Below are positions 22,220 to 50,411 of a stretch of DNA of 64,000 bases, piece by piece. Within the stretch, counting starts at the first letter, position 1, and every line of letters begins with the position of its first letter. The stretch comes from Candidatus Limnocylindrales bacterium (GTDB lineage: Bacteria > Acidobacteriota > Terriglobia > Acidiferrales > UBA7541). The notes below the pieces were generated by a model, which worked only from the letters and a program-made list of their open reading frames with translations, was not told where the DNA came from and ran no database searches. A program made the translations under genes and the position numbers. The stretch covers positions 28,908 through 92,907 of the forward strand of contig DASPTY010000214.1 of NCBI GenBank assembly GCA_035623175.1, given 5' to 3'.

Positions 22220-22594
22220 ATGCCTGCCGCTTACATCCCGGTTCTGATTTTCGCGCTGCTTGTTCTTTCATTTCCGGTTGTCGTTCTGCTTCTTTTCAAA
22301 CTGATTCGCCCGGAATCCCGAGGTGGCCCGGCAAAATTCCTGCCTTACGAATGCGGCATCCCTCCGGAAAGTAACGCCCGTGGGCGCTACTCCGCGCGGT
22401 TTTACGTTATTGCGATGCTCTTTGTCATATTCGACGTGGAAACCATGTTCCTTTTCCCCTGGGCCATTCTCTATCGTTCCTGGGTGGCCGCGCACATGGG
22501 CGCATTCGCTCTTATTTCCATGTTCGTCTTTCTCGGCATCCTTCTCGTTGGTTACATTTGGATCTACAAAAAAGGCGCGCTCGACTGGGCCTAG
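22220..22594 (+). CDS. nuoA: Complex I subunit A (operon 1)
   Basis: PYECG, FYVIAMLFVIFDVETMFLFPWA, KKGALDW. Confidence 0.96.
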   Translation: MPAAYIPVLIFALLVLSFPVVVLLLFKLIRPESRGGPAKFLPYECGIPPESNARGRYSARFYVIAMLFVIFDVETMFLFPWAILYRSWVAAHMGAFALISMFVFLGILLVGYIWIYKKGALDWA

Positions 22595-22914
22595 TCCGCG
22601 CCTCTTTTGCTTCCAGACTCCTGCGTGTCAACTCTTTGCTAGTGTCTCTGCCCCCCGAGCTGAAATTTCCACCTCTGTGTGTCCGTGCTCATTGACTGCC
22701 ATAGCTGCCTATGTTAGAAACGCAGGGAGCGATCGTAACAGCTGCGAGGTCGCGGATGACTGAGTCCGCCGAGAAGTGGCTTGCATGCTCTCGTTCCTTC
22801 CTCATCGTTGCGCGAGCTGATTTGCGGCCATTCTCAGAGTGGTAAGTATAAGGCCCCCTGCTCTTCAATTTTCGGGGCCGTTCAGGCGCAGCATACATAA
22901 TGGTCCCGGAGTCC

Positions 22915-23577
22915 ATGGCAGACGAGTCGAAGCCACCCCAATCGCCTGAGAGTCCCAAGCCGGAAACACCCGGCGCCGCACCCGCACAGCCTGCCGCCCC
23001 CAAAAGCGCAGCGCCCCCCGCAACTCCTCCCGCGGTGAAGCCTGCTGCTCCCGCTCCCAAGCCGCCCGTTCCTTTGCAGGTTCCGCTCGATAATGAACTT
23101 ACGAAGCGATATCGAGAACGCTTCGGCGTCGCCATTCTTGATGCGCTCGAAGATCGCAAGCAGCCCTATCTCGTCATCGACTCCGCGAGTCTCGCCGACA
23201 TCGCTCGTTATTCGTGTGACCAAGAGAAGTACGATCTTCTCGAGGATTACACGGCCGTTGACTGGCCTCGCCGTGAGAAGCGCTTCGATCTCGTCGCCGT
23301 TCTTTACTCGTTTCCGCACAACACCCGCCTCCGCCTGAAAATTCCCATTGCGGCGAACGAGCGCCCGACAAGCCTTGTCGAAATCTGGCCCACCGCCAAC
23401 TGGCTCGAGCGTGAAATCTTCGACATGTTCGGCATCGAATTTGCCGGCCACCCGGACATGAAACGCATACTCCTTCCGGACGGCTGGCAAGGGCATCCGC
23501 TCCGCAAGGACTATGACATTCTTCAGCAGGACGCCGCCTGGGTCCGAGAAAATCTCGGCATAGAAAGCGGCCAGTAG
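22915..23577 (+). CDS. nuoC: Complex I subunit C (operon 1) with Pro/Ala-rich N-terminal extension
   Basis: [39 protein letters not shown]. Confidence 0.95.
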
Positions 23578-23588
23578 GACTGATAACG

Positions 23589-24731
23589 GTGGGAGACACT
23601 TTGCAGGAAGAGGCGATCAAGAACGGCGGCACGCTGCTCGGCGCAGACGAACTGGTCCTCAACATGGGACCGCAGCACCCTTCCACTCACGGCGTTCTGC
23701 GCGTAAAGCTCAAGCTCGATGGCGAACGCGTTCGCGGCACGGAATGTGTAATCGGCTATCTGCACCGCGGCGTTGAGAAGATTGCGGAAAGCCGTTCCTA
23801 CCAGCAATTCGCACCTTACGTTGACCGCATGGACTACGTCGCGGCGGTTAGCAATGGCCTTGGCTACTGTGAAGCCGTCGAAAAGTTGCTGAACGTCGAA
23901 GCGCCACCGCGCGCTCGGGTCATTCGCACGATTCTCACCGAACTGCAGCGTATCGCCAGCCATCTTGTTTGGCTAGGGACGCACGCTATGGATATTGGTG
24001 CGATCTCGCCTATCTTCTACTGTTTCCGTGAGCGCGAGGAAATTCTGAAAATCTTCGAAAAATACTGCGGAGCGCGGCTCACTACGCACGCCTTCCGCAT
24101 CGGTGGCCTGCAGTACGAGGCCTACGATGGTTTTGAGAAGGACGTCGAGCGTTTCTGCCTCGATTTCGAACGTCGTATCCAGGAATATGTTGACCTGCTC
24201 ACCGGAAACAGCATCTGGATGGGCCGTACCCGCAACGTGGGAGTCCTTAACACTGCCGACTGCATCGCTCTCGGCGCTTCCGGTCCCGTGCTGCGCGCAA
24301 GTGGCCTGAAATGGGACCTGCGGAAAGCGCAACCTTACGCCGCTTACGATCAGTACAAGTTTGAGATCCCCGTCGGCACGAACGGCGACACCTACGACCG
24401 GTATATGGTACGTATCGAGGAGATGCGCCAGTCGCGCCTCATCTGTCTGCAAGCCATCGAGAAAATTCCTGAAGGCGCCATTCTGGGCAAAGTCGGCAAG
24501 GTGCTAAAGCCGCAGCCCGGCGAGATCTACCACTCCATCGAAGCGCCCAAAGGCATCCTCGGCTATTACATTGTCAGCGATGGAACGACGCAGCCGTATC
24601 GCGTGCGCATTCGTCCGCCGTCATTCGTCAATTTGCAGGCCTTCGATAAAATGGTTCGCGGGCACCTGGTGGCCGATGTTGTAGCCATTATTGGTACCCT
24701 CGATATCGTCCTCGGCGAGGTGGACCGCTAG
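23589..24731 (+). CDS. nuoD: Complex I subunit D (operon 1)
   Basis: [42 protein letters not shown]; GTG start. Confidence 0.97.
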
Positions 24732-24734
24732 CCC

Positions 24735-26114
24735 ATGAACCCCACCCTTCACGCCATCCTCATCTTTCTCCAGACCTGGTGGGTCGAACTCGTTTCCGGT
24801 GTTGTTATCGTCGCCGTTGTTCCTCTCGTCGCCGGATATCTCGTGCTGATGGAGCGCAAGCTTATGGCGGACATGCAAGCCCGTCTCGGCCCCATGCGTG
24901 TTGGCCCTCACGGCCTGCTCCAGCCCATCGCCGATGCATTCAAATTGCTCATCAAGGAAGACATTATTCCGGCTGACGCGGATAAGCTGATCTTCTGGCT
25001 CGCGCCGGTGATTTCCATGGTCGCCGCCTTGACCGCGATGGGAGCGATCGCCTTCGGCCCGGCCTTCCAGGTGGCCCGCGATATCAACGTCGGCATCTTG
25101 TTCGTCGTAGGTGTTAGTTCGCTCGGCTTCCTAGGAATCATCCTGGGCGGTTGGGCTTCCAACAGCCACTACTCCATCATCGGTGCGATCCGCAGCACTG
25201 CCCAGCTTGTCAGTTATGAAACGGCGGGTGGCCTGGCGATCGTGAGCGCGCTACTGCTGTCCGGGACGCTCAGCATCCGCGGCATTGTTGACGCGCAGCA
25301 AAAGAGCGGCGCCTGGTTCATCTTCCTCGCCCCTGTCGCTTTTTTCACCTATCTCGTCGCCTCGATCGCGGAAACCAACCGCGCGCCCTTCGATCTTCCC
25401 GAAGCCGAGTCCGAGTTGGTCGCCGGCTATATGACCGAGTACAGCGGCTTCCGCTGGGCTCTGTACTTCCTCGGTGAGTATGCCAACATGATCGTTGTCG
25501 GCTCCGTTGCCACGACGCTCTTCCTCGGTGGCTGGCTCCGGCCCTTCCCCAACGTTCATTGGCTTAACTGGATTGAATATCTCCCTGCTTTCTTTATCGC
25601 GATTGTCGGCGTTTATTGCATCTACCGGGCTGGGAAGCAGCCCGTGGCGATTCAGGTGGCGTTCATGTGGGCGGTGGCTCTGGCCTGCTTCGCGATCGCC
25701 GCTGTTCTTGCGGCTCCCTGGATTCTCCACGTCCTGCACAAATTTGGCGTGGCGGCTCCCCTCAATCTCGACTTTACTGTCCCCGGCCTGAATGGTGCCT
25801 TCTGGTTCCTGCTGAAGGTATCGGTCTACATTTACGTTTTCATGTGGCTGCGGTTCACTCTGCCCCGTTACCGGTTCGACCAGCTCATGCATCTCGGCTG
25901 GTACATCCTGATTCCTTTGGCCATCGTAAACGTCCTTGCGGTCGGCGTGGCCTTGTTGCTCGAATCCGCACTTGGCTGGAACCGGTGGCTGGCCATGGTT
26001 GTCACTACGATCATTACGATGGCTTTCGCGCTTTTCCTGGTTCATTTGCACGATAAACGCACTGCCGCGGCTTCCTCCGCCGCGGCCGTCACGACGGATT
26101 CCTATGCTGGATAG
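24735..26114 (+). CDS. nuoH: Complex I subunit H (operon 1), long form (459 aa)
   Basis: ERK..A.MQARLGP, QPIADAFKL, AETNRAPFDLPEAESELVAG, TLPRYRFDQLM. Confidence 0.96.
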   Translation: MNPTLHAILIFLQTWWVELVSGVVIVAVVPLVAGYLVLMERKLMADMQARLGPMRVGPHGLLQPIADAFKLLIKEDIIPADADKLIFWLAPVISMVAALTAMGAIAFGPAFQVARDINVGILFVVGVSSLGFLGIILGGWASNSHYSIIGAIRSTAQLVSYETAGGLAIVSALLLSGTLSIRGIVDAQQKSGAWFIFLAPVAFFTYLVASIAETNRAPFDLPEAESELVAGYMTEYSGFRWALYFLGEYANMIVVGSVATTLFLGGWLRPFPNVHWLNWIEYLPAFFIAIVGVYCIYRAGKQPVAIQVAFMWAVALACFAIAAVLAAPWILHVLHKFGVAAPLNLDFTVPGLNGAFWFLLKVSVYIYVFMWLRFTLPRYRFDQLMHLGWYILIPLAIVNVLAVGVALLLESALGWNRWLAMVVTTIITMAFALFLVHLHDKRTAAASSAAAVTTDSYAG

Positions 26115-26637
26115 CATCCTCTTCTACTTCTTCGCCGGTGTGGCCGTGCTCAGCGCGGCGCTGATGGTCACGCGCCGCAATGCCATCCACAGTGCAGTCT
26201 TCCTCATCACCACGCTTCTTGCGACCGCCGGCATTTTCCTGCAGCTTCGCGCCGAATTTCTCTTCATCGCGCAGATCATTCTCTACGTCGGCGGAATCAT
26301 GGTGCTGTTCATCTTCGTCATGATGCTGGTCCGACTCGATGTTGCGCTGCACCATATCCGCTTCCGGCTGCAACGGTTCGTCGCGCTCATCGTGGCACTC
26401 ACGCTTGGTGGCTACATTTCCGTCATTCTCTTTTGGGCACGCAAGCTGCCTGGGCAGGGCCTGTTCATTCAGGGTGCTGCGCCGGCTGAAAGGCTCTCTC
26501 CCAATTCCGAGCAGTTGGCGAAAAGCCTTTTCAGCAGCTACCTGCTGCCCTTTGAGATCGCCAGCGTCCTGCTGCTTGTCGCCATGGTTGGCGCCGTGGT
26601 GATGGCCAAGAACAAGAAAGGGGCCAACGAACCATGA
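26104..26637 (+). CDS. nuoJ: Complex I subunit J (operon 1)
   Basis: RNAIHSA, AEFL..QIILYVGGIMVLF, YLLPFEIASVLLLVAMVGA; ATG 26104 overlaps the nuoH end. Confidence 0.95.
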   Translation: MLDSILFYFFAGVAVLSAALMVTRRNAIHSAVFLITTLLATAGIFLQLRAEFLFIAQIILYVGGIMVLFIFVMMLVRLDVALHHIRFRLQRFVALIVALTLGGYISVILFWARKLPGQGLFIQGAAPAERLSPNSEQLAKSLFSSYLLPFEIASVLLLVAMVGAVVMAKNKKGANEP

Positions 26638-26936
26638 TGTCCCCGGCGCACTACCTGTTTCTCAGCCTGGCCCTGTTCATCATCGGCTGCATCGGCGTGA
26701 TCACGCGCCGCAACGTAATTATCGTCCTGATGTCCATCGAGCTGATTCTCAACGCCGTCAACATCAATCTCGTTCTTTTCTCGCGCATCTTTGGGGACGC
26801 CGCCGGGCAAGTCTTCGCCCTCTTCATCATCGCGGACGCCGCCGCCGAAGCCGCCATCGGCCTCGGCATCATCATCGCGTTCTTCCGCAATCGGGAAACC
26901 GTAATGGCCGACGAAATGGACCTCCTGAAATGGTGA
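26634..26936 (+). CDS. nuoK: Complex I subunit K (operon 1)
   Basis: RRNVI.VLMSIELILNAVN, AAAEAAIGL. Confidence 0.96.
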   Translation: MMSPAHYLFLSLALFIIGCIGVITRRNVIIVLMSIELILNAVNINLVLFSRIFGDAAGQVFALFIIADAAAEAAIGLGIIIAFFRNRETVMADEMDLLKW

Positions 26937-26943: not shown

Positions 26944-29064
26944 ATGACTTCTCCTGGCTACTTCCTTGCTCACCTATGGCTCATCCCGCTGTTCCCGCTC
27001 ATCACCGCGGCGCTCATGCTTCTCGTCGGCCGTATCCTTCCAAAAAGCGCGGTCAGCTTTTTCTGTGTTGGCAGCGTTTTCCTTTCCTTTGTGCACGCCG
27101 CCGGCGCCGTACTCCAGTTGCGGAATCTTGATCCTCGCGTCTACCAGCAAATCCTTTTCGAGTGGGTCACGCCCGGCCTGATGCCTGCGTTCGGCGGACT
27201 CTCCCCGTTTGTCGCGGACTGGGGCTATCTCCTCGACCCTCTCTCCGCTGTGATGATTCTCGTCGTCACGGGCGTCGGTTTCCTCATCCACGTTTACTCC
27301 ATCGGCTACATGGGGCATGAAGGCGGCTACTACAGGTTCTTCGGGTACATGAATCTATTTATGTTTGCAATGCTCACGCTTGTCCTCGCCAACAACTTGC
27401 TTCTTCTTTTCGTTGGTTGGGAAGGTGTTGGTCTCTGCAGCTACCTTCTTATTGGTTTCTACTTCCTCAAGAAATCCGCCTCGGATGCAGGCAAGAAAGC
27501 GTTCATCGTTAATCGCGTCGGCGACACAGGCTTCCTCCTGGGCATCTTTTTCATTGCCACCACGTTTGGCACAATCCGCTTTACCTCTCATAATCTGCCC
27601 GACCCCGTGGCCTTCGCTGGCATCAAGGAAACGCTGGCTGCCATGCTCGAACAAGGCCGCCTGGCCTATGGCGCACCAGTGCTCACCGTCATTGCGCTGC
27701 TGCTCTTTTTTGGTGCCTGTGGGAAATCCGCGCAACTTCCTCTCTACGTATGGCTGCCCGATGCCATGGAAGGCCCCACGCCCGTCAGCGCGTTGATCCA
27801 CGCAGCCACCATGGTCACCGCCGGTGTCTACATGGTGGCGCGGATGAACGGCATCTACCAGCTTGCTCCCATCGCCATGGACTTGGTCGCAATCGTTGGC
27901 ACTCTCACCGCCATCTTCGCCGCTTCGATGGCCGTCGCTCAAACGGACATTAAGCGAGTCCTTGCCTATTCAACGATCAGCCAACTCGGATACATGTTCC
28001 TCGCTCTCGGGGTGGGCGCCTTCTCCGCAGGAATCTTCCACCTGATGACTCACGCTTTCTTCAAAGCGCTCCTCTTCCTCGGCGCCGGTAGCGTGATCCA
28101 CGCACTGTCCGGCGAGCAGGATCTGCGCAAGATGGGCGGCCTCTGGAACAGCATCCCCGCCACCTCCCGCCCGTTCCTCATCGCCACGCTCGCCATTGCC
28201 GGCATCCCGCCTCTCGCCGGCTTCTTCAGCAAAGACGAAATCCTCGGCCAGGCCTTTGAGCACCTGCCCTACCTCTGGTTTATCGGCCTTCTCACCGCTG
28301 GTCTAACAGCCTTCTACATGTTTCGGCTGCTCTTCCTGGCGTTCTTTGGCCTTTCTCGCGTCCCGCACGAACTCGAGGAGCACATTCACGAGTCGCCCAA
28401 GAGCATGACCGTCCCTCTCGCCATCCTCGCTCTTCTCTCCATTGTCGGCGGATGGTTCGCCTTCCCAGTTCTCTGGGGAGGTGAAAGCACCTTCGCGAAT
28501 TTCCTCGCGCCCGTCTTTCGCCGTGTTATTCCCGAAGCCGCCGAGGCCGGTCCGCAAACTGCCCTTGTCGATTTCCTGCTCATGCTCGCCTCTGTGGCCA
28601 TCGCGGTCTTCGGCATCTGGCTCGCCCACTTGATCTACATCAGGAACCCGCAGCTGCACGCAAAGCTCGCTGCCTCCTGGCCGCGTCTTCACAAGCTGTT
28701 GGTCAATAAGTACTACGTCGACGAAATCTACGACGCGCTATTTGTGAACCGCATCAAGGACCTCAGCACGGGCTTCGGCCTTTTCGACGCCAAAGTCATT
28801 GACGGAATCGGTGTAGACGGCTCGGCCTGGCTTGCTCGCGTCTTCTCTTCGATTTCCATGTGGTGGGATAAGTGGGTGGTGGACGGCCTCGTCAATTTCA
28901 TCGGCAAATTCACTCAATTTCTCAGCACGCCCATCCGGATGTTCCAGACTGGGGTTTTCTCCAGCTATGCCATGTTCATTCTGATTGGGCTTGCCGGCTT
29001 GCTTTTGTATTACGGATATCACATGCAGCACCACATGCAGGAGTTAATGCGCAATCTGCGCTGA
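26944..29064 (+). CDS. nuoL: Complex I subunit L (operon 1) with extended helix HL
   Basis: WEGVGLCSYLLIGF, KSAQLPLYVWLPDAMEGPTPVSALIHAATMV, HAFFKALLF; 706 aa. Confidence 0.97.
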   Translation: MTSPGYFLAHLWLIPLFPLITAALMLLVGRILPKSAVSFFCVGSVFLSFVHAAGAVLQLRNLDPRVYQQILFEWVTPGLMPAFGGLSPFVADWGYLLDPLSAVMILVVTGVGFLIHVYSIGYMGHEGGYYRFFGYMNLFMFAMLTLVLANNLLLLFVGWEGVGLCSYLLIGFYFLKKSASDAGKKAFIVNRVGDTGFLLGIFFIATTFGTIRFTSHNLPDPVAFAGIKETLAAMLEQGRLAYGAPVLTVIALLLFFGACGKSAQLPLYVWLPDAMEGPTPVSALIHAATMVTAGVYMVARMNGIYQLAPIAMDLVAIVGTLTAIFAASMAVAQTDIKRVLAYSTISQLGYMFLALGVGAFSAGIFHLMTHAFFKALLFLGAGSVIHALSGEQDLRKMGGLWNSIPATSRPFLIATLAIAGIPPLAGFFSKDEILGQAFEHLPYLWFIGLLTAGLTAFYMFRLLFLAFFGLSRVPHELEEHIHESPKSMTVPLAILALLSIVGGWFAFPVLWGGESTFANFLAPVFRRVIPEAAEAGPQTALVDFLLMLASVAIAVFGIWLAHLIYIRNPQLHAKLAASWPRLHKLLVNKYYVDEIYDALFVNRIKDLSTGFGLFDAKVIDGIGVDGSAWLARVFSSISMWWDKWVVDGLVNFIGKFTQFLSTPIRMFQTGVFSSYAMFILIGLAGLLLYYGYHMQHHMQELMRNLR

Positions 29065-29076: not shown

Positions 29077-30693
29077 ATGTCGCTAATCTCACATCATCTC
29101 CTCAGCGTGATCCTCTTCACGCCGCTGGTGGGGGCGCTCGTCTTGATCTTCCTCCCGCGTGGCTCGCAAACCCTTCACCGCATCTTTGGCAACATCTTCG
29201 GCATTCTCGGCTTTGTCGTTTCCATTCCCCTCGTCCGCTATTTCCCCATTGGCTACAAGGGTTTCACTTTTGAAGAATCCGCCGACTGGATCCCCTCGAT
29301 TGGCGCGAGATACTACCTCGGCATCGACGGCATCAGCTTCCTCCTTGTCATGCTCACCACGCTCCTTGGCATGCTCGCCATCCTCTCTTCCTGGGCTGCC
29401 ATTCAGAATCGAACCAAAGAGTATTACATCCTAATGCTGCTCCTCCAGACCGGCATGCTCGGTGTTTTCATGTCTCTGGACTTCTTCCTTTTTTACGTTT
29501 TTTGGGAAGTCATGCTCGTCCCGATGTATTTCCTCATCGGCGTTTGGGGCAGCGAGCGGCGGCTCTACGCGGCGATCAAATTCTTCCTGTACACCCTGGC
29601 GGGCTCCGTCTTGATGCTCCTCGGCATCCTGGCGCTCTATTTCAATGCCGCTAAGGCGACCGGCATGCACACGTTTGACATTCCCACTCTTTTGGCCGCT
29701 GTGCAGAACCCGCAGTATGCCCAGTATTTTCCAGAGTCCCTTAAGGTTTGGCTCTTCTGGGGTTTGTTCTTCGCCTTTGCCATCAAAGTGCCCATGTTCC
29801 CGTTCCATACCTGGCTGCCGGATGCGCACACTGAAGCTCCCACAGCAGGGTCCGTGATTCTGGCTGGCGTTCTCCTGAAGATGGGCACGTATGGTTTCAT
29901 CCGCTTCTCGCTGCCTCTGCTTCCTACGGATCCAGTGCTGCGCTCCAGAATCATATCGGTCCTGATATTCCTTTCGCTCGTCGGCATCATCTATGGCGCC
30001 ATCGTCTGCCTGATGCAGAAAGACATGAAACGCCTGATTGCCTATAGCTCCGTCAGCCACCTCGGTTTCTGCACGCTCGGAATTTTTGCGCTGACGCCCC
30101 AAGGTCTTTCCGGCAGCGTCCTCCAACAGATTAACCACGGCATCTCCACCGGCGCGCTATTCTTGATCGTCGGTATTCTATACGAGCGGCGACACACGCG
30201 CCTGATTTCCGAGTTCGGCGGTCTCTCCACTCCCATGCCGAATTACGCTGCGATCTACCTCATCATTACCTTGAGCTCCCTCGGCATGCCGCTTCTCAAT
30301 GGCTTCATCGGAGAGTTCACCATACTTCAAGGCGCGTTCGTTGTCAGCAAAGCCTGGGCTGCCTGGGGCACACTCGGCATCGTGCTCGGCGCCGCCTATC
30401 TCTTGTGGCTCTACCAGCGAGTGATGTTCGGCCCCGTCACTCACGAAGTGAACAAGACTCTTCCGGACATGAATCTCCGTGAATACGCCGTTCTCATTCC
30501 GCTGGTTGTATTGGCCTTTTGGATCGGCATCTACCCAAAGCCTTTCTTCGGCTACATCAACAATCCTGTGGAGAAAATCGTCCACCAGGTCAACCCGACT
30601 TTCTACCAGCGTGCCGCTTTGCCTTCACTGGTACCGTCTAATTCCTTAACATCCTCAACTTCGCCCAATTCCGCCTCAACCGGGGGAAAATAG
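29077..30693 (+). CDS. nuoM: Complex I subunit M (operon 1)
   Basis: FWEVMLVPMY, AIKFFLYT, KVPMFPFHTWLPDAHTEAPT, LLKMGTYG, AYSSVSHLG. Confidence 0.97.
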   Translation: MSLISHHLLSVILFTPLVGALVLIFLPRGSQTLHRIFGNIFGILGFVVSIPLVRYFPIGYKGFTFEESADWIPSIGARYYLGIDGISFLLVMLTTLLGMLAILSSWAAIQNRTKEYYILMLLLQTGMLGVFMSLDFFLFYVFWEVMLVPMYFLIGVWGSERRLYAAIKFFLYTLAGSVLMLLGILALYFNAAKATGMHTFDIPTLLAAVQNPQYAQYFPESLKVWLFWGLFFAFAIKVPMFPFHTWLPDAHTEAPTAGSVILAGVLLKMGTYGFIRFSLPLLPTDPVLRSRIISVLIFLSLVGIIYGAIVCLMQKDMKRLIAYSSVSHLGFCTLGIFALTPQGLSGSVLQQINHGISTGALFLIVGILYERRHTRLISEFGGLSTPMPNYAAIYLIITLSSLGMPLLNGFIGEFTILQGAFVVSKAWAAWGTLGIVLGAAYLLWLYQRVMFGPVTHEVNKTLPDMNLREYAVLIPLVVLAFWIGIYPKPFFGYINNPVEKIVHQVNPTFYQRAALPSLVPSNSLTSSTSPNSASTGGK

Positions 30694-30702: not shown

Positions 30703-32223
30703 ATGCACTCCATCCTCGATCCCATCATCAGTTATATGCACGGCGACGGGCGTGTCATTCTCCCGGAGATGTTCCTACTTCTCTTCGCCTTGGGCATCCT
30801 CATCTTCGACTTCCTCCTCGAGAAGAAAGAAAAACATTTGAATGCCATGCTCGCCTTGTTCGGCGTTGGATTCAGCAGCGTGGGCCTGTACCTTCAAGTG
30901 AAGCAGTACAACCTGGAACGCGCTAATCCAATCAGGGAAACAGTAGGTCTGCTCGGGTTCCACCAGACGGTCCTGGTTGACGGCTTTTTCATCGTTTTCG
31001 CCAGCCTCTTCCTTGCTGCCACCGCTCTTGTGATTCTTCTTTCCGTCCGCTATCTCGATTTGGAAAAGGAGCAAGAGGGTGAGTACTACGCGCTGATCCT
31101 TCTCTCTTGCATCGGCATGATGTTCATGGCCTCTGGCATAGACCTCATCGTTCTCTTCCTCGGCCTGGAGACCATGGCCCTCAGCTTTTACGTGATGACC
31201 GGTTTCCTTCGTGCCAATAAGCGCTCCAATGAAGCCGCCATGAAATATCTTCTCCTCGGGGCTTTCAGCTCGGGCATCCTTGCCTACGGGTTCTCACTCC
31301 TCTACGGCGTCAGCGCCTCCACCGACATCCGCCAGATTGGCAGGATGCTTGACGCCCGTCTCCAGTACACGTCGGCGCATAGTTTTACTGACTGGCTTGT
31401 CATCCTGGCATTTGTTACTGTCGCTGCCGGCCTCTTCTTCAAGGTTGCCGCGGTGCCCTTCCACCAGTGGGCTCCCGACGTCTACGAAGGCGCGCCGACG
31501 CCAATCACCGCTTACGTCAGCGTCGCTTCAAAAACTGCTAGCTTTGCATTGCTCCTGCGTCTTTTGACCAGTGTATTCGGTGGCTCTCAAGCCACCTGGC
31601 TCTACGCCATTGCCGGTGTTGCTGTGGCGTCTCTCACTTGGGGCAATCTCGCCGCCCTCACGCAGACAAATATCAAGCGCCTCCTGGCTTACTCCTCCAT
31701 CTCCCATGTCGGCTACATACTTCTCGGCGTCGTCGCAGGCAATGAGATCGGCATGGTCGGCATCATGTATTACTTGATTGCGTACGTCTTTATGACCATC
31801 GGCGCCTTCGCCGTGGTCGTTGTTATGCGCCAGCGCGGCATTATCGGCGATGAACTCGAGGACCTCGACGGCCTCTACGAACGGAATCCAGCCGCCGCTG
31901 TGCTGCTTCTCATTTTCATGCTGTCTCTTGCCGGCATCCCCGCGACAGCCGGCTTCGTCGGGAAGTACTACATCCTATGGTCTTTGATTGAAACCCATCA
32001 CCCCGTGCTGGCCGTGATTGCCGCGCTCTATATCGTTCCAGCGCTGTATTATTACCTCCGGGTAGTCATCCATGCTTGGCAGAAGAAGCCTGGACAAGTA
32101 CCTGCTCCGCAAATGAGCAGCGCGCAGGCCATCGCTCTTGGCGCCGCCGTGTTTGTTTCCCTCGCCGCGGGGTTGTATCCTGAGCCGTTCGCCCGGCTGG
32201 CGCACTATGCCTTCGGCCTCTAA
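30703..32223 (+). CDS. nuoN: Complex I subunit N (operon 1)
   Basis: GEYY, EAAMKYLLLG, FKVAAVPFHQWAPDVYEGAPTP, KRLLAYSSISH. Confidence 0.97.
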   Translation: MHSILDPIISYMHGDGRVILPEMFLLLFALGILIFDFLLEKKEKHLNAMLALFGVGFSSVGLYLQVKQYNLERANPIRETVGLLGFHQTVLVDGFFIVFASLFLAATALVILLSVRYLDLEKEQEGEYYALILLSCIGMMFMASGIDLIVLFLGLETMALSFYVMTGFLRANKRSNEAAMKYLLLGAFSSGILAYGFSLLYGVSASTDIRQIGRMLDARLQYTSAHSFTDWLVILAFVTVAAGLFFKVAAVPFHQWAPDVYEGAPTPITAYVSVASKTASFALLLRLLTSVFGGSQATWLYAIAGVAVASLTWGNLAALTQTNIKRLLAYSSISHVGYILLGVVAGNEIGMVGIMYYLIAYVFMTIGAFAVVVVMRQRGIIGDELEDLDGLYERNPAAAVLLLIFMLSLAGIPATAGFVGKYYILWSLIETHHPVLAVIAALYIVPALYYYLRVVIHAWQKKPGQVPAPQMSSAQAIALGAAVFVSLAAGLYPEPFARLAHYAFGL

Positions 32224-32464
32224 CGACAGCAACAAAGACTCCCAATCCACTCCTCCCGAGAACCAAGGCGCTGGCTTCTCCCGCCAGTTCGCTATGGCCA
32301 TGGAACTTCCCTTTGTTCTCGTTGCAGCCATTCTTGTCGGCGGCTTCGTCGGCTACTTGCTGGATCGCTGGCTTCATACCAAGCCCATCCTGATGTTTGT
32401 CCTTGGATTTCTCGGCTTCTTCGGCGGACTCCGCGACGTCCTCCGCCGCTTACCTGCAAAATAA
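32207..32464 (+). CDS. AtpZ/AtpI-family small membrane protein
   Basis: GYLLDRWLHTKP.LM...GF.G two-TM pattern; ATG 32207 overlaps the nuoN end by 17 nt. Confidence 0.85.
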   Translation: MPSASNDSNKDSQSTPPENQGAGFSRQFAMAMELPFVLVAAILVGGFVGYLLDRWLHTKPILMFVLGFLGFFGGLRDVLRRLPAK

Positions 32465-32883
32465 TGATGGTAAGTTCGGAGATAGATATCTCGCGCGATC
32501 TCAAATCCGAGCGGCGAATTTCTTGGCTCACGCTCCTCTTGGGTGTTCTTGCGGCCCTCCCGGTCGCCTATATCTATGGTCTGCGATGGGGTGCAGGCAT
32601 CCTCATTGGCGCCATTCTCGCATGGCTCAACTTCCGCTGGCTTAAAGAAGGCGCAGACGCTCTTACCGAAGCGGCCACTGCCCAAGCCAGCCAAGGAAAG
32701 GTAAGGGTCCCCGTCGGCGCGTACTTTCGCGCCCTCTTCCGCTACGGGTTGATAGCCCTCTCTGTCTATGTTATTTTTAAATATCTGAACGTTCCCGTTT
32801 TGAGCATGATTCTTGGTTTGTGCGCCCTGGGAGCGGCCGCCTTTGCTGTGAGTGTGCACGAAATCCTGCGTCCTCAGGACTGA
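32464..32883 (+). CDS. atpI: ATP synthase protein I
   Basis: Four TM segments, G..LAWLNF.WL, RYGL; directly before atpB. Confidence 0.8.
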   Translation: MMVSSEIDISRDLKSERRISWLTLLLGVLAALPVAYIYGLRWGAGILIGAILAWLNFRWLKEGADALTEAATAQASQGKVRVPVGAYFRALFRYGLIALSVYVIFKYLNVPVLSMILGLCALGAAAFAVSVHEILRPQD

Positions 32884-32886
32884 CGA

Positions 32887-33717
32887 ATGGAAGAACAAGT
32901 AAGCCTAATAACCCACTGGGTGAACCACATCTTCGGGCCTGTTGCCCTGTATCTTCTGCACGTCCTCAAGATTCAGCCAGCGGACCATGAAACCCCCATT
33001 CCCGAGTATGTCGTCATGTCGCTCGTGGTCCTTGTTCTGGGTACGGTCCTGGCGCTGATCCTGCGTTCACGGCTGTCGGTGGAGCGTCCGGGTGGAATGC
33101 AGCAGGTCGCGGAGTTGCTGTTCACGAATCCATTGAAGTTCGGGATCTGTGATCTTTTGGACGAAAACGTCGGCCATGGTGCCAGGCAGCATGTGGCGGT
33201 GGTCGGGACCGTGTCTGTCTTTATTTTGTTTTCGAACCTCTTGAGTGTATTTCCCGCCTTCTCGGCGCCCACCGGCATTGTTGTCGTGCCTCTTGCCTGC
33301 GCCAGCGTTACCTTCGTCTACTTCAACTGGCAGGGTATCCGCCACCACGGAACTGGCCATTACCTACTTACTTTTGCGGGCTCCCCACGGAAATTAGCTG
33401 ACTGGCTGCTCGGCATCCTGCTTTTCCCTGTGGAATTGTTCAGCACCGCAGCGCGCATACTCTCCTTGACCGCGCGTCTCTGGGCCAACATTTTTGCAAG
33501 CGATATGCTGTACGGGATCATGCTCAGCCTGCTGGTCAAACTGACACTGTTCTGCTGGTCCAAATTCGCGGTTCTCGGCGCCGCTCTGGCCATTCTGCCA
33601 GCCGTTATTCCCTTGGCGTTTATCGCATTGCACATGTTCGTCGCTGTAATTCAGGCGTACGTGTTCACGGTGCTGCCGACGATCTATATCGGGATGGCGA
33701 CGGCAGACGAGCACTAA
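32887..33717 (+). CDS. atpB: F-type ATP synthase subunit a
   Basis: [26 protein letters not shown] with the essential Arg, IQAYVF. Confidence 0.95.
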
Positions 33718-33806
33718 GTGTCGCAATTGTGTCGCTTCAGTGTGAGACCGGTTGTACGGCGTTGAGCCGGGAACCACCAACTGGCGGCAATTCTAAGGAG
33801 GTAGTG

Positions 33807-34130
33807 ATGAAGAAAATAGCTGTTGTTCTGGTTGCAGTCGTGCTTCTGGCGATGGCCGCCCCGGCTGCATTTGCGCAGGAAGCAGGAGCAAAACCCGGAG
33901 GCGGACATGTAGGGACCCTTGCAATCGCCGCCGGCTTCGCCATGGCGCTTGCCGCCTTTGGAGGCGCGCTGGGCCAGTCGAGGGTCGGTGCCGCTGCATG
34001 TGAAGGCATGGCCCGCAATCCCGGAGCCTCGGGTGCGATTCGCGCTTCGATGATCCTGGGCTTGGTTTTCATCGAAACGCTCTCGCTGTTAACCTTCGTG
34101 ATCGCGATCGTCCTCTATCTCAAGATGTAA
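33807..34130 (+). CDS. atpE: F-type ATP synthase subunit c with N-terminal signal-like extension
   Basis: Gly-rich helix, ARNP loop, FIETL carboxylate; perfect SD TAAGGAGGT at 33794-33802. Confidence 0.96.
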
Positions 34131-37163: not shown

Positions 37164-38636
37164 CTATCGCGCAGACAGGATCAAGTTCTGAGAAAGAACA
37201 ATTCCAAGGACGTGATTTGGAGCGAGCCCCAGGTAGAGGGTGATGATCGCTGCCACCGAGACAACCATTGCTGCCGTCGGGCTCAGTCCTTGCGACGCGT
37301 CTGCGGGCAACGTCCCCTTGTACTCCCGCATGTACATCACAACGATGAGCCGCAAATAGTAGTACGCCCCTATCACGCTATTCACTGCCATCAGAATTGC
37401 CAACCACAACAAGTCCGAGTGAATAGCGGCCTTGAAGATGTAAAACTTGCCGAAGAATCCGGCAGTAATCGGCAAGCCCAGCAGCGAAAGCAGAAAAAGG
37501 CTAAGTCCAGCAGCCGCAAACGGTTGACGTGTGCCCAGGCCCGCAAAGTCATCGAACGTCAAATACCGCTCGCCTTGCCCCCCAAGTTCAGAAATTACCG
37601 TGAACGATCCCACGGAAACCAAAGCGTAGCTGGCCAAGTAGAACAACACCGCCGCATAGGCCGGAGCCACCGACTCCGGGTCAGTCCGCACCGAAGTTAC
37701 GGCCGCGAACGCGACGAGCGTGTAACCTGCATGTGCAATCGAGCTATACGCCAACATACGCTTCACGTTGGACTGCACCAGCGCTCCCAGATTTCCTACG
37801 AACATGGTCAGTCCCGCCAGAATCCAAAAGGCCCAGAACCAGAACTGCGTGGCCGCATGAACCGTGCTGAAGATTCGAAGCAAGAGCGCGAACGTCGCCG
37901 CTTTTGGACCCGCGGAGAACAGCGCTGTAACCGGCGTGGGCGCGCCTTCGTAAACGTCCGGGGTCCACACCTGGAATGGGGCGGCAGCCACCTTGAACCC
38001 CAGGCCGACTAGAATGAGCGTTAGCCCAAGACGCAGCAAATTGCTCGAGGGATCTGCATCAGCGAGCCTCACCAAGTTCGTCGAACCCGTGACCCCGTAG
38101 ACCAGCGCGATTCCATACAGGAAGAACGCTGTGGCAAACGAGCCAAGCAGAAAATACTTCACGGCTGATTCGCTTGCTTTCACCGAATCGCGCCGGTAGC
38201 CCGCCAAAACGTAGCTCGAGATGGACGACATTTCTAAGCCGATGAATGCGGTTAGGAGTTCCTGAGCGGAGGCGAGGACACCCATTCCTGCCGTGGCGAA
38301 CATGATCAAGGCATAGAACTCTGCGCTGTCCAGCTTTTCCCGCTCAAGGTACGAGTCGCTCGCCAGAATCACCAGGAAGGAGATGAGTCCAACCAGCCAG
38401 TGAAAGAAAAGACTGAAAGTGTCGAACTGAATCTGCGCAAAAAACGCGCTGCCGAAGAAGCCGTAGAAAGTAGCCAGCGTGCCCACTGACGTGCCAACCA
38501 TCGCGAGGAATGTGAGCGCTTGGCGATTCTTCAGGAAAGGCTGGATCAGCATCAAGAAGACACCCGTGCCGCACCAGATCAACTCCGGCAGAACCAGGCG
38601 CAGATTTTGCAGCATTTGCTGGTTGAGCGAGCTCAT
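37164..38636 (-). CDS. nuoN: Complex I subunit N (operon 2)
   Basis: ESAVKYFLLG, FKVAAAPFQVWTPDVYEGAPTP, KRMLAYSSIAH. Confidence 0.97.
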   Translation of the reverse strand: MSSLNQQMLQNLRLVLPELIWCGTGVFLMLIQPFLKNRQALTFLAMVGTSVGTLATFYGFFGSAFFAQIQFDTFSLFFHWLVGLISFLVILASDSYLEREKLDSAEFYALIMFATAGMGVLASAQELLTAFIGLEMSSISSYVLAGYRRDSVKASESAVKYFLLGSFATAFFLYGIALVYGVTGSTNLVRLADADPSSNLLRLGLTLILVGLGFKVAAAPFQVWTPDVYEGAPTPVTALFSAGPKAATFALLLRIFSTVHAATQFWFWAFWILAGLTMFVGNLGALVQSNVKRMLAYSSIAHAGYTLVAFAAVTSVRTDPESVAPAYAAVLFYLASYALVSVGSFTVISELGGQGERYLTFDDFAGLGTRQPFAAAGLSLFLLSLLGLPITAGFFGKFYIFKAAIHSDLLWLAILMAVNSVIGAYYYLRLIVVMYMREYKGTLPADASQGLSPTAAMVVSVAAIITLYLGLAPNHVLGIVLSQNLILSAR

Positions 38637-40217
38637 TTAGCGCGATGCCAGCCTTTCTGTGGAATTGTCCGCAGGGCGATTGCTTGCAAGCCGCGGCGTG
38701 CCCGGAACCGCAACCTCATGCATCACATTTCGGTTCATTTGTTCGATGACGGTTTTGCAAGGCGCTGCGAAACGCTGCGTAAAGAACGGCGAGCCGATTC
38801 CCATCCACAAGATCACCACCGCGATTGTCGCCAAAATCCACTTTTCCCGTACTGAAGCGTCTGCGAGTTCACGGTTTTTCTGCTGCGTCACCTCGCCGAA
38901 AAACACTCTCTGGTACGACCAGAGCAGATAGCAGGCCGACAAGATCACGCCTATGGCCGCCCAAGCAGCCCAATTCCAATGGACCTGATATGTGCCGAGG
39001 AGGATCAAGTACTCGCCCACGAACCCGTTCAGCATCGGCAGGCCCAGCGACGAAAGCACAACGAATAGGAAGAACGCCGCCAGTTTCGGCATTGGAGTTG
39101 ACAGCCCACCATAGTCGCTGATCTCAAACGTGTGGCGGCGGTCGTACAACATGCCCACGAGCAAAAAGAGTCCGCCCGTAGAAATTCCATGCGCCAGCAT
39201 CTGGAAGACCGCGCCCTGCATGGAAATGTTCTGGAACGCAAAAATGCCAAGCACCACGAATCCCAGATGGCTTACGGAAGAGTACGCCACCAGTTTTTTC
39301 AAATTGGGTTGCACCATCGCAACCAGCGCGCCGTAGATGATGCCGATGATGGCCAGCACTGCGACATACGGCGCCGCGCGCCGCGATGCATCTGGGAATA
39401 GCGGCAGGCAGAAGCGGATCATGCCGTACGTCCCCATCTTCAGCAGCACGCCCGCCAGGATCACGGAACCGGCTGTGGGCGCTTCCACGTGGGCATCTGG
39501 CAACCATGTGTGCAGCGGGAACAGCGGCACCTTGATCGCAAACGCAAGGAAAAACGCCAGGAACAGGATCATCTCCGTCCGCTCCGGCAGCACCAGCGCA
39601 CCGTCGTGCAGCAACTTCTGAATGATTGGGAGATCGAATGTGCCAGTGGCGTTATACAACCAGATGATTCCGACAAGCATCAGGATCGAGCCGGCCATGG
39701 TGTAGAGCACGAACTTTACGGCGGCATAGATGCGGCGCTCGTGACCCCATATCCCGATGAGGAATGCCATCGGGATCAGCATGATTTCCCAGAACAGGAA
39801 GAACAGGAACAGATCGAGCGAAAGGAACACTCCCACCACGCCCACTTCCAGCAGAAGCAGCATCACGTGGAATTCCTTGATGCGGTGATGCACGCCGTGC
39901 CACGACGCCAACACACAGATCGGCGTAAGGAACGTGGTCAACATCACCAAGAAAAGGCTGATGCCATCCACGCCCAGGTGGTAGTTGATCGGCGGCGAGG
40001 ATATCCAATGGCCAAATTCCTCGAGTGAGTAACCGGCTTGCCCGATGGGTACTGCCCGCAGCAGTAACAACGAAAACAGGAACTCGACAGTGGAAACCAC
40101 GAACGACAAGCGGCGAATCCACAACTCGTCGTCGCTACGCAAGAACAAAAGTGCGAGCGCTCCGAACGCAGGGAAGAAGATCACAACGGTGAGGAGGTGT
40201 CCGCTAAAAGCGATCAT
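38637..40217 (-). CDS. nuoM: Complex I subunit M (operon 2)
   Basis: FWEIMLIPM, KVPLFPLHTWLPDAHVEAPT, LLKMGTYG; start MIAFSG at 40217 (TAATG overlap). Confidence 0.97.
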   Translation of the reverse strand: MIAFSGHLLTVVIFFPAFGALALLFLRSDDELWIRRLSFVVSTVEFLFSLLLLRAVPIGQAGYSLEEFGHWISSPPINYHLGVDGISLFLVMLTTFLTPICVLASWHGVHHRIKEFHVMLLLLEVGVVGVFLSLDLFLFFLFWEIMLIPMAFLIGIWGHERRIYAAVKFVLYTMAGSILMLVGIIWLYNATGTFDLPIIQKLLHDGALVLPERTEMILFLAFFLAFAIKVPLFPLHTWLPDAHVEAPTAGSVILAGVLLKMGTYGMIRFCLPLFPDASRRAAPYVAVLAIIGIIYGALVAMVQPNLKKLVAYSSVSHLGFVVLGIFAFQNISMQGAVFQMLAHGISTGGLFLLVGMLYDRRHTFEISDYGGLSTPMPKLAAFFLFVVLSSLGLPMLNGFVGEYLILLGTYQVHWNWAAWAAIGVILSACYLLWSYQRVFFGEVTQQKNRELADASVREKWILATIAVVILWMGIGSPFFTQRFAAPCKTVIEQMNRNVMHEVAVPGTPRLASNRPADNSTERLASR

Positions 40218-42187
40218 TAGCGCACCCCCCCAACCAACACCGGATGAAGAATCGGCCAAAAGATGATCGCAAGGACCACAATCGCCCCGACCAGGACCCA
40301 CACTGCATAACTTCGCGTATTGCCGGACTGTGTGTGCCGGACGGTGTCGCCGACGGCAGTTGCTCCGCTGGCGATGCCGTTCACGGTGCCGTCGATCACG
40401 CCAACATCCACAACCTTCCAGAAAAGGTTCCGCGAAAGCCACATCAGCGGCCCAATCACAACGGTCTGATAGAGCTCGTCAACGTAGTATTTGTTGTAGA
40501 GGACCTTGTATGCGCCGGCGAGCGCAGGGCGCTTCGCGCCTTTGGTGTACATCCGCCAGGCAACAATCAATCCAACAAGCGCCGCCGCAACCGCCACCCC
40601 TGACAGAATCATCTCGAGAGAGTGCGCTTCGGCGCCTTCCACCTTTTCGCCCCCAAACACCGGCGCCATGAACTCCGCGAAGTAATTCCGGCCGCCCCAG
40701 AGTGCGGGAGCGGCGACCCATCCGCCAACCAGCGAAAGCAACGCCAAAATCATCAGCGGCACGGTCATGTTCTTTGGCGATTCGTGCACATGGACCTTGC
40801 GCTCGTCATACCGCGGCTGGGTGCCGAATGTCAGCCAGATTAGCCGGAACATGTAAAACGAAGTGAAAATTGCGGCGAGAAGCCCGACGCCGTACAACAC
40901 TTTTCCGTTGAATTGGTAATTGAAAGCCGCGAAGAGAATCGCGTCCTTCGAAAAGAATCCCGCAAACGGAATGAACCCTGCAATGGCGATCGTTCCCGTC
41001 AGCATGCACCAGAACGTGACCTTGATCTTGGAAGCCAGCCCGCCCATTCCCCACATGTCCTGCTCGCCGCCGATCGCATGGATCACGCTGCCGGCCGAAA
41101 GGAAAAGGAGCGCCTTGAAGAAGGAGTGTGTCATCAAATGGAAAATGCCTGCGCCGAACGCGCCGACGCCGCAGGCAAGGAACATGTAGCCCAGTTGGCT
41201 GACCGTGGAATACGCGAGAACACGTTTGATGTCCGATTGCACCAAGCCAATGGTTGCGGCAAAAAACGCTGTTGCGCATCCCACAATTGCCACGACGGAC
41301 ATCGCGGTGAGCGAATGGGTGAAGAGCACGTTGGAGCGTGCGACTACATACACGCCAGCGGTCACCATCGTCGCCGCGTGGATCAAAGCGCTGACGGGTG
41401 TTGGGCCCTCCATCGCGTCCGGCAGCCAGACGTACAGCGGAATCTGCGCGGACTTACCTGTGGCGCCCATGAAGAGCAGAAGGCAAGTCACCGTCATGAT
41501 TCCAAACGTTCCGATGGGCTCGACCCCAACGTTTCCGTTCGTGACCGTATCGAATATGGTCTGGAAGTCGAGAGAGTGATACGAACGGAAGAGCAGAAAC
41601 ATTCCCAACATGAAGCCGAAGTCGCCGATGCGGTTCACGATGAAGGCTTTCTTGCCCGCGTCGGATGCCGATTGCCTCAGGAAATAGAAGCCGATGAGCA
41701 AGTAGCTGCAGAGACCGACGCCCTCCCAGCCGACGAAGAGAAAAGCAAAATTCGCGGCCAGAACCAGAATCAGCATGAAGAACATGAACAGATTCAGGTA
41801 GGAGAAGAAGCGGTAGTAGCCGCCCTCATGCGCCATGTATCCCGTGGAGTAAATGTGAATCAGGAAGCCGACGCCCGTCACCACCAGCACCATGACCACC
41901 GTAAGCTGGTCGAACTGCAGGTCAAAGCCCGCGCGGAAATTCCCGGCTACAATCCAATCGAAAAAGGGCTTCACAAAGGCATGGTGACGCGTTTCGTAAT
42001 AGCCGTGGAATTCGCGTACCGCTTCCAGCGCGCAAGCGAAGGAAAGCCCCGTAGAACCGAGCGCGATAATGTTGACAATTTTGTTCGGCCATTTTGAACC
42101 GAGAAGGCCATTGATCGCCGAGCCCAGTAGCGGCAGGAGCGGAATAATCCACAGGTAGTCGAGTATCGGATGCGCAGGTGTCGGCAT
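40217..42187 (-). CDS. nuoL: Complex I subunit L (operon 2), normal-length HL
   Basis: WEGVGLCSY, KSAQIPLYVWLPDAMEGPTPVSALIHAATMV; 656 aa. Confidence 0.97.
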   Translation of the reverse strand: MPTPAHPILDYLWIIPLLPLLGSAINGLLGSKWPNKIVNIIALGSTGLSFACALEAVREFHGYYETRHHAFVKPFFDWIVAGNFRAGFDLQFDQLTVVMVLVVTGVGFLIHIYSTGYMAHEGGYYRFFSYLNLFMFFMLILVLAANFAFLFVGWEGVGLCSYLLIGFYFLRQSASDAGKKAFIVNRIGDFGFMLGMFLLFRSYHSLDFQTIFDTVTNGNVGVEPIGTFGIMTVTCLLLFMGATGKSAQIPLYVWLPDAMEGPTPVSALIHAATMVTAGVYVVARSNVLFTHSLTAMSVVAIVGCATAFFAATIGLVQSDIKRVLAYSTVSQLGYMFLACGVGAFGAGIFHLMTHSFFKALLFLSAGSVIHAIGGEQDMWGMGGLASKIKVTFWCMLTGTIAIAGFIPFAGFFSKDAILFAAFNYQFNGKVLYGVGLLAAIFTSFYMFRLIWLTFGTQPRYDERKVHVHESPKNMTVPLMILALLSLVGGWVAAPALWGGRNYFAEFMAPVFGGEKVEGAEAHSLEMILSGVAVAAALVGLIVAWRMYTKGAKRPALAGAYKVLYNKYYVDELYQTVVIGPLMWLSRNLFWKVVDVGVIDGTVNGIASGATAVGDTVRHTQSGNTRSYAVWVLVGAIVVLAIIFWPILHPVLVGGVR

Positions 42188-42489
42188 TAGAGTTTGAGTA
42201 GATCCACGCGCTCAACGTTGAGCGAACGACGGTTGCGCGACGTAAGAATGATGATGCCCAGACCCACGGCCGCTTCCGCAGCCGCCACCACAATCACAAA
42301 CAAGACAAAGACTTCACCATCCGCCTTGTGAAGCGCTTGACTGAATGCCACGAACGCCAAATTTACCGCGTTCAGCATCAACTCGATGGACATGAACAGC
42401 GTGATGATGTTTCGTTTGAAAACGAAGCCCACGATTCCCAGCCCGAAGAGAATCGCACTCAATAACAGGTAATGGCCTGTTGGGATCAT
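42187..42489 (-). CDS. nuoK: Complex I subunit K (operon 2)
   Basis: KRNII.LFMSIELMLNAVNL, AAAEAAVGL. Confidence 0.96.
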   Translation of the reverse strand: MIPTGHYLLLSAILFGLGIVGFVFKRNIITLFMSIELMLNAVNLAFVAFSQALHKADGEVFVLFVIVVAAAEAAVGLGIIILTSRNRRSLNVERVDLLKL

Positions 42490-42491
42490 GG

Positions 42492-42992
42492 TCAGCTCTC
42501 CCGCTGGGCCAGCACAATCGCGCCCAGAATCGCTACGAGGATCAGGAAAGAAGTCAGCTCAAACGGATAAACAAATTCGTTAAACAACAACAAGGAGAGT
42601 GTCTTTGTGGAGGTGAGAGCCCCGCTCGGCTCCGCCGCGGGCAAAGAACCGCTCGACCAGGCAATGGCAGCCGCGATGAAGCCGGTCGTGGCCACGGCCA
42701 GCGGAATCCCGGCGTAGGTCGCGAGCTTGGAAAAATTCGTGCGCTCTTCTTTGCCCGCGTTCAGGAGCATAATCACAAAAACAAAAAGGACCATAATCGC
42801 GCCGCCATAGACGATGATCTGCACCGCAGCGACAAATTCCGCCCCCATCAGGAGATAGAGCCCTGCGAGCGCAACCATCACCACAATCAACGAAAGCGCG
42901 CTATGGATCGGCTCGCGCTGCAAGATCAGGCTGATAGCTCCCAGCACCGCCAGCGCGGCAAGCACGAAAAAGATGATCAATGGCGCAGTCAT
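42492..42992 (-). CDS. nuoJ: Complex I subunit J (operon 2)
   Basis: PIHSAL, AEFVAAVQIIVYGGAIMVLF, YPFELTS; ATG overlaps the nuoH stop. Confidence 0.95.
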   Translation of the reverse strand: MTAPLIIFFVLAALAVLGAISLILQREPIHSALSLIVVMVALAGLYLLMGAEFVAAVQIIVYGGAIMVLFVFVIMLLNAGKEERTNFSKLATYAGIPLAVATTGFIAAAIAWSSGSLPAAEPSGALTSTKTLSLLLFNEFVYPFELTSFLILVAILGAIVLAQRES

Positions 42993-46440: not shown

Positions 46441-46446
46441 GGGTCC

Positions 46447-48261: not shown

Positions 48262-48267
48262 AGGCCC

Positions 48268-49464: not shown

Positions 49465-49488
49465 AGTTCGCGGTCCGTAAGCCGGAAT

Positions 49489-49968
49489 CTAGCGCTTGCC
49501 CTCCGTCGGGAAATCCCGGCGTAGCGGGGCACCTTCAAACCCATCGGGCAGAAGGATGCGCCGCAAATCGGGGTGCCCTTCAAAACGAACGCCAAACAGG
49601 TCGAAGATTTCGCGCTCTAGCCAATTGGCGCCCGGCCAGACGGAGACGAGCGAATCAACCACCCCGTGCTGGGCGCTTACGCTGGTGCGCAGGCGGATGC
49701 GTTCGCGCCGGGGAATCGAGACCAACTGATAGTTGAGCTCGAAGCGCGGTTCCAGCGGGTAACGGTCGACGCAGGTGGCGTCGCTCAAGAGATTGAAGTT
49801 GAGTGCCGGATTGTCCTTGCACTGCTGCGCAGTGGCAACCAGCAACTCGCGCGGAACAACAATCGTGGTCTCCCCCCGATACTCAACGACTTGGGCGACC
49901 GCCTGGGGGTTCCAGGCACAAAGCTGTTCGACTACAGCATTAGCGTTGGCAGTGTCGAGCGGCGTCAC
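49489..49968 (-). CDS. nuoC: Complex I subunit C (operon 2)
   Basis: [33 protein letters not shown]. Confidence 0.95.
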   Translation of the reverse strand: MTPLDTANANAVVEQLCAWNPQAVAQVVEYRGETTIVVPRELLVATAQQCKDNPALNFNLLSDATCVDRYPLEPRFELNYQLVSIPRRERIRLRTSVSAQHGVVDSLVSVWPGANWLEREIFDLFGVRFEGHPDLRRILLPDGFEGAPLRRDFPTEGKR

Positions 49969-50000
49969 GAAATCGAGATCCTCAAGGGCTTAGGCCGGCT

Positions 50001-50399: not shown

Positions 50400-50411
50400 G
50401 GTCAAAGGGTT

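Follow-up and report, generated by a model that had tools for sequence, protein, structure and literature searches.

The locus described here raises the question of how many NuoM subunits are built into the membrane arm of a complex I whose NuoL subunit carries a lateral helix (HL), by which the pump subunits are tied to one another, of the length known from complexes with two NuoM subunits, while its operon contains a single nuoM gene. The window, i.e. the whole stretch of DNA that was analysed, comprises 64,000 nucleotides of contig DASPTY010000214.1, in which ORF translations and NCBIfam matches place two complex I operons facing each other (Table 1). Operon 1, on the forward strand, has the gene order nuoA, C, D, H, J, K, L, M, N and is followed by F0 ATP synthase genes, an arrangement that is kept in relatives (the atpI-like ORF had no NCBIfam match and owes its name to its position); operon 2, on the reverse strand, has the order nuoA, C, D, EF, G, H, J, K, L, M, N. 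The genes nuoL1, nuoM1 and nuoN1 are contiguous, with a single nuoM between nuoL and nuoN, as is the case in all complete close relatives. The distance between the NKYYVDE and QxG motifs is 73 residues in NuoL1 versus 48 in NuoL2, and an earlier note on this DNA, which had claimed for NuoL1 an HL insertion of about 2M size, a spacing of 27 codons between the modules and an operon with a single nuoM, is confirmed on the sequence in all these particulars. The indirect, sequence-based evidence presented below suggests that the arm probably contains two copies of NuoM1, in the order L-M-M-N.

Table 1 Features of the two complex I operons, with nucleotide positions in the window.
Feature	Position	Strand	Basis or remark
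nuoA, operon 1	22220..22594	+	NCBIfam NuoA match
nuoC, nuoD, nuoH, operon 1	22900..26114	+	Profile matches; operon without nuoB, E, F, G, I
nuoJ and nuoK, operon 1	26104..26936	+	nuoJ start is a chosen ATG within a longer ORF
nuoL1, 706 aa, long lateral helix HL	26944..29064	+	TIGR01974, 728.7 bits
First HL segment, NKYYVDEIY..., D593	28705..28785	+	Sequence; runs along NuoL itself in solved structures
HL module 1, D615-W641, D-x4-DG	28786..28866	+	Site where E. coli HL contacts NuoM
HL module 2, D642-F667, D-x4-DG-x-VN	28867..28944	+	26 residues before QTG, as the sole NuoL2 module
QTG motif and last transmembrane helix TM16, proximal anchor	28945..29028	+	Anchor role from passages of PMC3274701
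nuoM1, sole nuoM of operon 1	29077..30693	+	Starts 12 nt past nuoL1
NuoM1 TM5-TM6 residues F136, F152, I167, F170, L174, V178, L182	29482..29622	+	Common to long-helix single-nuoM operons
nuoN1	30703..32223	+	TIGR01770
F0 ATP synthase genes atpI-like, atpB, atpE	32464..34130	+	atpB and atpE by NCBIfam; adjoin operon 1
Operon 2, short-helix control	37164..50441	-	nuoL2 (42187-40217) overlaps nuoM2 by 1 nt

In the 2M complex I (Chadwick, Hemp, Fischer and Orphan 2018, ISME J 12:2668, as cited in passages of PMC9040806 and PMC7419157) HL is extended by an insertion of about 26 residues, located where that of NuoL1 is; the helix of NuoL1, with 73 residues, compares with 72-76 in 14 two-nuoM operons, and NuoM1 groups with the NuoMs of 2M operons. 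The differences are that operon 1 contains one nuoM, not two, and that its modules are alike, whereas module 2 decays in those 2M operons that have divergent NuoMs; the NuoL1 helix would work like a 2M helix, yet outside a 2M operon by gene content. This mismatch is already in print, since Complex_I_1 and Complex_I_2 of Ca. Manganitrophaceae combine, as operon 1 does, a canonical gene content with a NuoL HL insertion (Yu et al. 2022, PMC9040806). In the passages concerned, such complexes are taken either to be able to accommodate extra pumps already or to be in evolutionary transition, and two copies of one NuoM are not proposed; the Manganitrophaceae genomes differ in that they also encode a two-nuoM complex, so that a partner in trans is possible there. 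Green complex I, or Complex_I_3, in which two MrpD-like subunits replace NuoL, does not correspond to operon 1, which has a single NuoL over the TIGR01974 cut-off. The same two-operon layout, one operon with nuoEFG and the others (nuoACDHJKLMN) without, is on record for peat Acidobacteria (bioRxiv 10.1101/197269), in passages that mention neither helix length nor pump number. In view of these two reports the locus can no longer be called an undescribed system, as had been suggested, and the window is one more example of a common, already published feature, not a unique system. No proposal of two copies of one NuoM was found in the literature searched, most subscription papers lying outside its coverage.

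As regards the remainder of the enzyme, the source genome (65.55% complete) carries one nuoB and two nuoI on other contigs, and NuoA, B, C, D, H, I, J, K, L, M and N are therefore all encoded, nine of them in operon 1 and nuoB and nuoI elsewhere. Of 12 near-complete congeners, 4 possess operon 1; these have a second nuoB (4/4) and mostly a second nuoI (3/4), while those without it have single copies (8/8), which points to a dispensable 11-subunit enzyme. In five relatives, no more than one nuoF per genome exceeds the cut-off, and it belongs to operon 2; genome G042, which has the long-helix genes, gave no nuoF match. As regards the description of the complex as headless, operon 1 is devoid of nuoEFG and is accompanied within the genus by an additional nuoB and in most cases an additional nuoI, but the head of operon 2 may be borrowed.

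The nearest public relatives carry the labels Ca. Acidiferrum or Acidoferrales, and in close relatives operon 1 was found adjoining operon 2, both being within 30 kb in the window. Between the two operons lie genes for a Crp/Fnr-family regulator and a PAS hybrid histidine kinase (34214-36991, reverse strand), which, judged from gene spacing, are missing at that site in several relatives. Operon 2 contains a nuoE-nuoF fusion (46447-48261, reverse strand, 604 aa), and both NuoH proteins are long (459 aa, 24735-26114, forward strand; 403 aa, 42992-44203, reverse strand), their best match being a NuoH model of 433 positions. A search of sequencing runs returned five peat metagenome rows and one RNA row, the latter with a share of 0.16.

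In NuoL1, where NKYYVDE begins at residue 588 and the QTG glutamine is Q668, the lateral helix contains two D-x4-DG modules, DAKVIDG from D615 and DKWVVDG from D642. The net excess over NuoL2 is 25 residues as against a repeat period of 27, because the stretch preceding module 1 is two residues shorter than in NuoL2 (22 residues from D593 to D615, compared with 24 from D570 to D594). From the spacing of the anchors (D593, D615, D642 and Q668 in NuoL1; D570, D594 and Q620 in NuoL2) it follows that module 1 matches the sole NuoL2 module relative to NuoL itself, and that module 2 matches it relative to the QxG anchor. At the 81-nt period DNA identity is 34%, as compared to 24-33% at 13 other periods tried, so at the DNA level the repeat can no longer be seen and the duplication is ancient; it is nevertheless beyond chance, since the same two modules, 25-29 residues apart, were found in all 84 scored long-helix single-nuoM operons.

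AlphaFold2, supplied with an alignment of 95 sequences, draws an unbroken helix over residues 589-667, with block pLDDT values of 75-91 over residues 591-660; it readily draws long helices for single chains folded alone. The fold of NuoL1 is the same as that in the solved three-pump complexes of Paracoccus (8QBY), Thermosynechococcus (NDH-1, 6HUM), Thermus (4HE8) and E. coli (3RKO), with Foldseek TM values of 0.70-0.77 over the query. The solved complexes differ in having a single module, which in 8QBY, 6HUM and 4HE8 is at the position matching NuoL1, the second module of NuoL1 aligning as a separate match; no long-helix NuoL was present among the 31 best PDB matches, as judged from profile-match ends. 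In E. coli, P564-N566 are the HL residues nearest to NuoM in 3RKO (PMC3274701), and these correspond to residues 615-617, and E. coli D542 to D593, by ungapped extension from profile-match ends, which is an extrapolation. Passages of the same paper report that a slack of 6-7 residues after P552 lowers pumping to a fifth to a quarter and that an insertion at P572 destabilises the enzyme, defects which are counted here for a doubled NuoM, and that the majority of HL insertions are tolerated, several being harmless, which is counted against it.

The relation between helix length and nuoM number was surveyed in 80 loci chosen by long-helix likeness (among 512 confirmed), all of which were annotated, and in a further 120 loci from taxon-wide draws: Acidobacteriota (40 of 63 matches), the phylum of genome G046 (20 of 34), Nitrospirota (20 of 41), Chloroflexota (20 of 45) and Ignavibacteria (20 of 57), the fetched loci being hand-chosen among the matches and the last three group names being taken from centre loci. 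Following removal of 38 incomplete frames from a total of 214 nuoL frames, 176 complete nuoL-to-nuoN operons were retained, with eight helix classes set by eye. These operons are related and the counts not independent: 84 have a long helix and one nuoM, 15 a long helix and two, 77 a short helix and one, and none a short helix and two, the corresponding numbers for the taxon-wide draws alone being 32, 8, 65 and 0. That all 15 two-nuoM operons fall in the long class and none of the 77 short ones has two is counted for a doubled NuoM, and so is the quantisation of the helix at the true-2M value: measured lengths are 42-49 or 72-82 residues with nothing in between, 72-73 residues being found in 75 of 84 long single-nuoM helices and 72 in 12 of the 14 measured true 2M helices (range 72-76). 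Long single-nuoM loci span Acidobacteriota, Myxococcota, Binatota, Nitrospirota, Latescibacterota, Ignavibacteriota, Zixiibacteriota and others, and the combination of a long helix with a single nuoM is real, ancient and widespread in bacteria, not a local oddity.

Several surveyed loci deviate from the general pattern. An 82-residue helix, with about nine extra residues before module 1, one after module 2 and both modules intact, occurs in L046, L047, L052, L054, L055, L060 and L072. Three loci with a long helix and one nuoM, L121 (G093), L202 (G176) and L203 (G202), are placed outside the two main long-helix groups; L121, whose operon includes the NADH head, and L203 are possibly separate duplications because they are sisters of short-helix operons. 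In the acidobacterial loci L056, L064, L070, L071, L084, L125 and L127, a long-helix nuoL and a nuoM are followed by F0 ATP synthase genes, and neither nuoN nor any other nuo gene was detected in the locus DNA examined; a likely nuoN of G042 is located some 900 kb from the long-helix genes.

Both aspartates are retained in both modules in 83 of the 84 long single-nuoM operons, in which the 14 residues following the motifs are 11% identical between modules, and the sole short-helix module retains both in 57 of 70 operons; the retention of both modules argues against a free loop, which should lose one of them. In true 2M operons the motif of module 2 is lost where the two NuoMs are 30-37% identical (Nitrospira and two Chloroflexota lineages) and kept where they are 53-58% (deltaproteobacterial) or 81% (L091) identical, a trend based on 16 loci from 5 lineages only (rho 0.8, p 0.10) and as expected if each module tracks its own NuoM. 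The simplest reading of these sequences is that the two modules each follow the surface of a NuoM, both surfaces being provided by the same protein where there is only one gene. L091, from Anaerolineae, has two sister NuoMs under a long helix, which is the expected outcome of duplicating a self-pairing gene.

Functional antiporter-like subunits possess GluTM5, LysTM7, Lys/HisTM8 and Lys/GluTM12 (PMC7613608), and these motifs were located in NuoL1, NuoM1 and NuoN1, the central-axis residues E144, K237, K268 and E413 of NuoM1 being invariant or nearly so in 92 sequences. Two groups of NuoM from long single-nuoM operons (37 and 44 sequences), which stand apart on the tree, have in common 25 residues that are rarer in short-helix NuoM, a signature defined on the same groups it describes, as compared with 12 for the NuoN counterpart; overall identity between the two groups is 47%, versus 49% for one group against the short set. 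Ten of the 25 residues are located in TM4-TM6 (p 0.003, post hoc), five of them on one TM6 face. In complex I structures, TM5-TM6 of an antiporter subunit faces the next subunit, and the TM5-TM6 residues of NuoM1 in Table 1 represent a candidate NuoM-NuoM contact face. The 2M operons played no part in defining the signature; in three of their five lineages the first NuoM has more of the TM4-TM6 residues than the second, with one lineage mixed and one tied. Three separately placed NuoMs from long single-nuoM operons score 6, 6 and 4 of 10 (short-group mean 3.7), which is counted against a doubled NuoM.

The best tree found (76 sequences, LG+G4) places the acidobacterial NuoM1 as sister to the deltaproteobacterial 2M NuoMs together with the first NuoM of Nitrospira 2M operons (SH-aLRT 94.6), and holding the deltaproteobacterial pair together, as in a later duplication, was unrejected (p-AU 0.886 and 0.327). 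Joining the two long single-nuoM groups into one clade gave, in short searches, p-AU 0.154 against a poor free tree and 0.0008 against a better one. Helix class changes 9 times on the NuoM tree, 8 times on the NuoN tree and 20 times on a tree of nuoL cores from 141 operons; as the NuoN tree fits helix class as well, the pattern is not special to NuoM. On the core tree, short and long nuoL paralogues within a genome or family are often sisters, and the cores of such paralogues (26944-28704 and 42187-40496 in the window) may have undergone gene conversion that left the helix unaffected.

In the L-M-M-N arm proposed here, NuoL1 carries a predicted NuoM-contact module twice and each module would dock on one NuoM, two copies of the one NuoM1 likely standing in line and binding each other via the TM5-TM6 face, with the long helix as the likely ruler that fixes the NuoM number at two. 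Translation of nuoM would have to be about double that of nuoL and nuoN. From general bioenergetics, each pair of electrons would move one more proton, and the enzyme would then be suited to ferredoxin or another low-potential donor, or to running electron flow in reverse; a yield of five protons per two electrons is only postulated even in the case of true 2M complexes (passages of PMC9040806). Translation signals give no hint of doubled NuoM synthesis, which is counted against the proposal: the Shine-Dalgarno sequence before nuoM is not stronger in long single-nuoM operons (median -5.85 versus -6.40 kcal/mol in short ones, p 0.19, for the 121 of 176 operons in which the start could be placed, the rest being dropped), and that of nuoM1 in the window is weak (-3.7 kcal/mol, compared with -2.8 for nuoL1 and -8.4 for nuoN1). 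An overlap of nuoL with nuoM occurs in 0 of 58 long single-nuoM, 15 of 51 short and 0 of 12 true 2M operons, and was not counted because it is also absent from true 2M operons, because operon 2 is closely related to 8 of those 15 short operons and because some starts are doubtful. An apparent NuoM-NuoN fusion in L046, which would contradict a doubled NuoM, was discounted since a normal stop and an overlapping GTG are present one frame over; an indel is the likely cause, the assembly being rich in errors.

The earlier note had offered two ways of filling the additional position, a second copy of NuoM1 or recruitment of NuoM2 from the facing operon. Module conservation, quantised lengths and module decay in 2M operons favour the former, the doubling itself being something we infer, and filling of a fourth slot in trans by an antiporter-like subunit, here NuoM2, appears very improbable, even though the two operons lie within 30 kb and are neighbours in close relatives too. 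The number of nuoM genes equals that of nuoL in 19 of 19 relatives that are at least 90% complete, and tblastn of the source genome, 65.55% complete, returned two nuoM only, one per operon, so that the orphan nuoM which was to be sought is not found in this assembly. Among ten long-helix genomes screened for antiporter-like genes, seven have more of them elsewhere, in separate clusters (two acidobacterial genomes have four clustered together, at G087:C1:477832-483654 and G064:C34:122719-128509), but G093, G231 and G113 hold just nuoL, nuoM and nuoN, and G042, a single contig, has one nuoM over the cut-off. A partner in trans therefore cannot be the general answer, and with no other partner on hand these three genomes are counted for a doubled NuoM. 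Moreover, nuoM2 overlaps nuoL2 and abuts nuoN2, which suggests coupled 1:1 translation, and NuoM2 holds only 2 of the 10 TM4-TM6 signature residues.

An arm with the usual three pumps, in which the extra module bulges out of line or is absorbed by a change of register and has been retained for a different function (binding of a soluble or accessory partner, or contact with NuoN, TM16 then being seated further along), is rather unlikely but deserves more weight. It agrees with the three-pump gene content of 84 of the 99 long-helix operons, with the lack of a translation-initiation signal for extra NuoM, with the several harmless helix insertions in E. coli (PMC3274701) and with the evolutionary transition state that Yu et al. 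allow (PMC9040806). What it leaves unaccounted for is that the same motif is kept in both modules in 83 of 84 operons at lengths quantised at the true-2M value, that NuoN, on which the module might dock, has fewer long-helix signature residues than NuoM (12 versus 25), and that the E. coli enzyme becomes uncoupled when the helix is slackened between L and M (PMC3274701). That the long helix has no function and survives from a 2M ancestor whose second nuoM disappeared is scarcely more probable than recruitment of NuoM2. The grouping of NuoM1 with 2M NuoMs (deltaproteobacterial, and first of Nitrospira; SH-aLRT 94.6) in a long-helix clade would permit an ancient loss, but neither module has decayed and a later duplication of the two deltaproteobacterial NuoMs was not rejected (p-AU 0.886, 0.327). 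As no acidobacterial locus surveyed has two intact nuoM, the recent loss that had been considered finds no support, and any loss must predate the radiation of the phylum.

With two copies of NuoM1 in the arm as the preferred reading, a broader reading can be put forward to which we give slightly more credence than to its opposite: that in an old and large class of bacterial complex I enzymes three pump genes suffice for an arm of four pumps, two identical NuoMs being threaded by the NuoL helix; that 2M operons arose later, through duplication of the self-pairing gene or acquisition of a foreign nuoM; and that five-proton complex I is several times commoner than gene counts indicate (32 long-helix operons with one nuoM versus 8 with two in the 120 loci of the taxon-wide draws). 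Should this be incorrect, a strictly conserved second NuoM-type contact module would still need a partner. If it is true, the pump number of complex I would be set by helix length and not by gene number, gene counts would miss a four-pump enzyme, and the energy yields read from the genomes of many soil and sediment bacteria would be off by one proton per turnover, and the long helix would offer a direct test of whether each added antiporter adds a proton.
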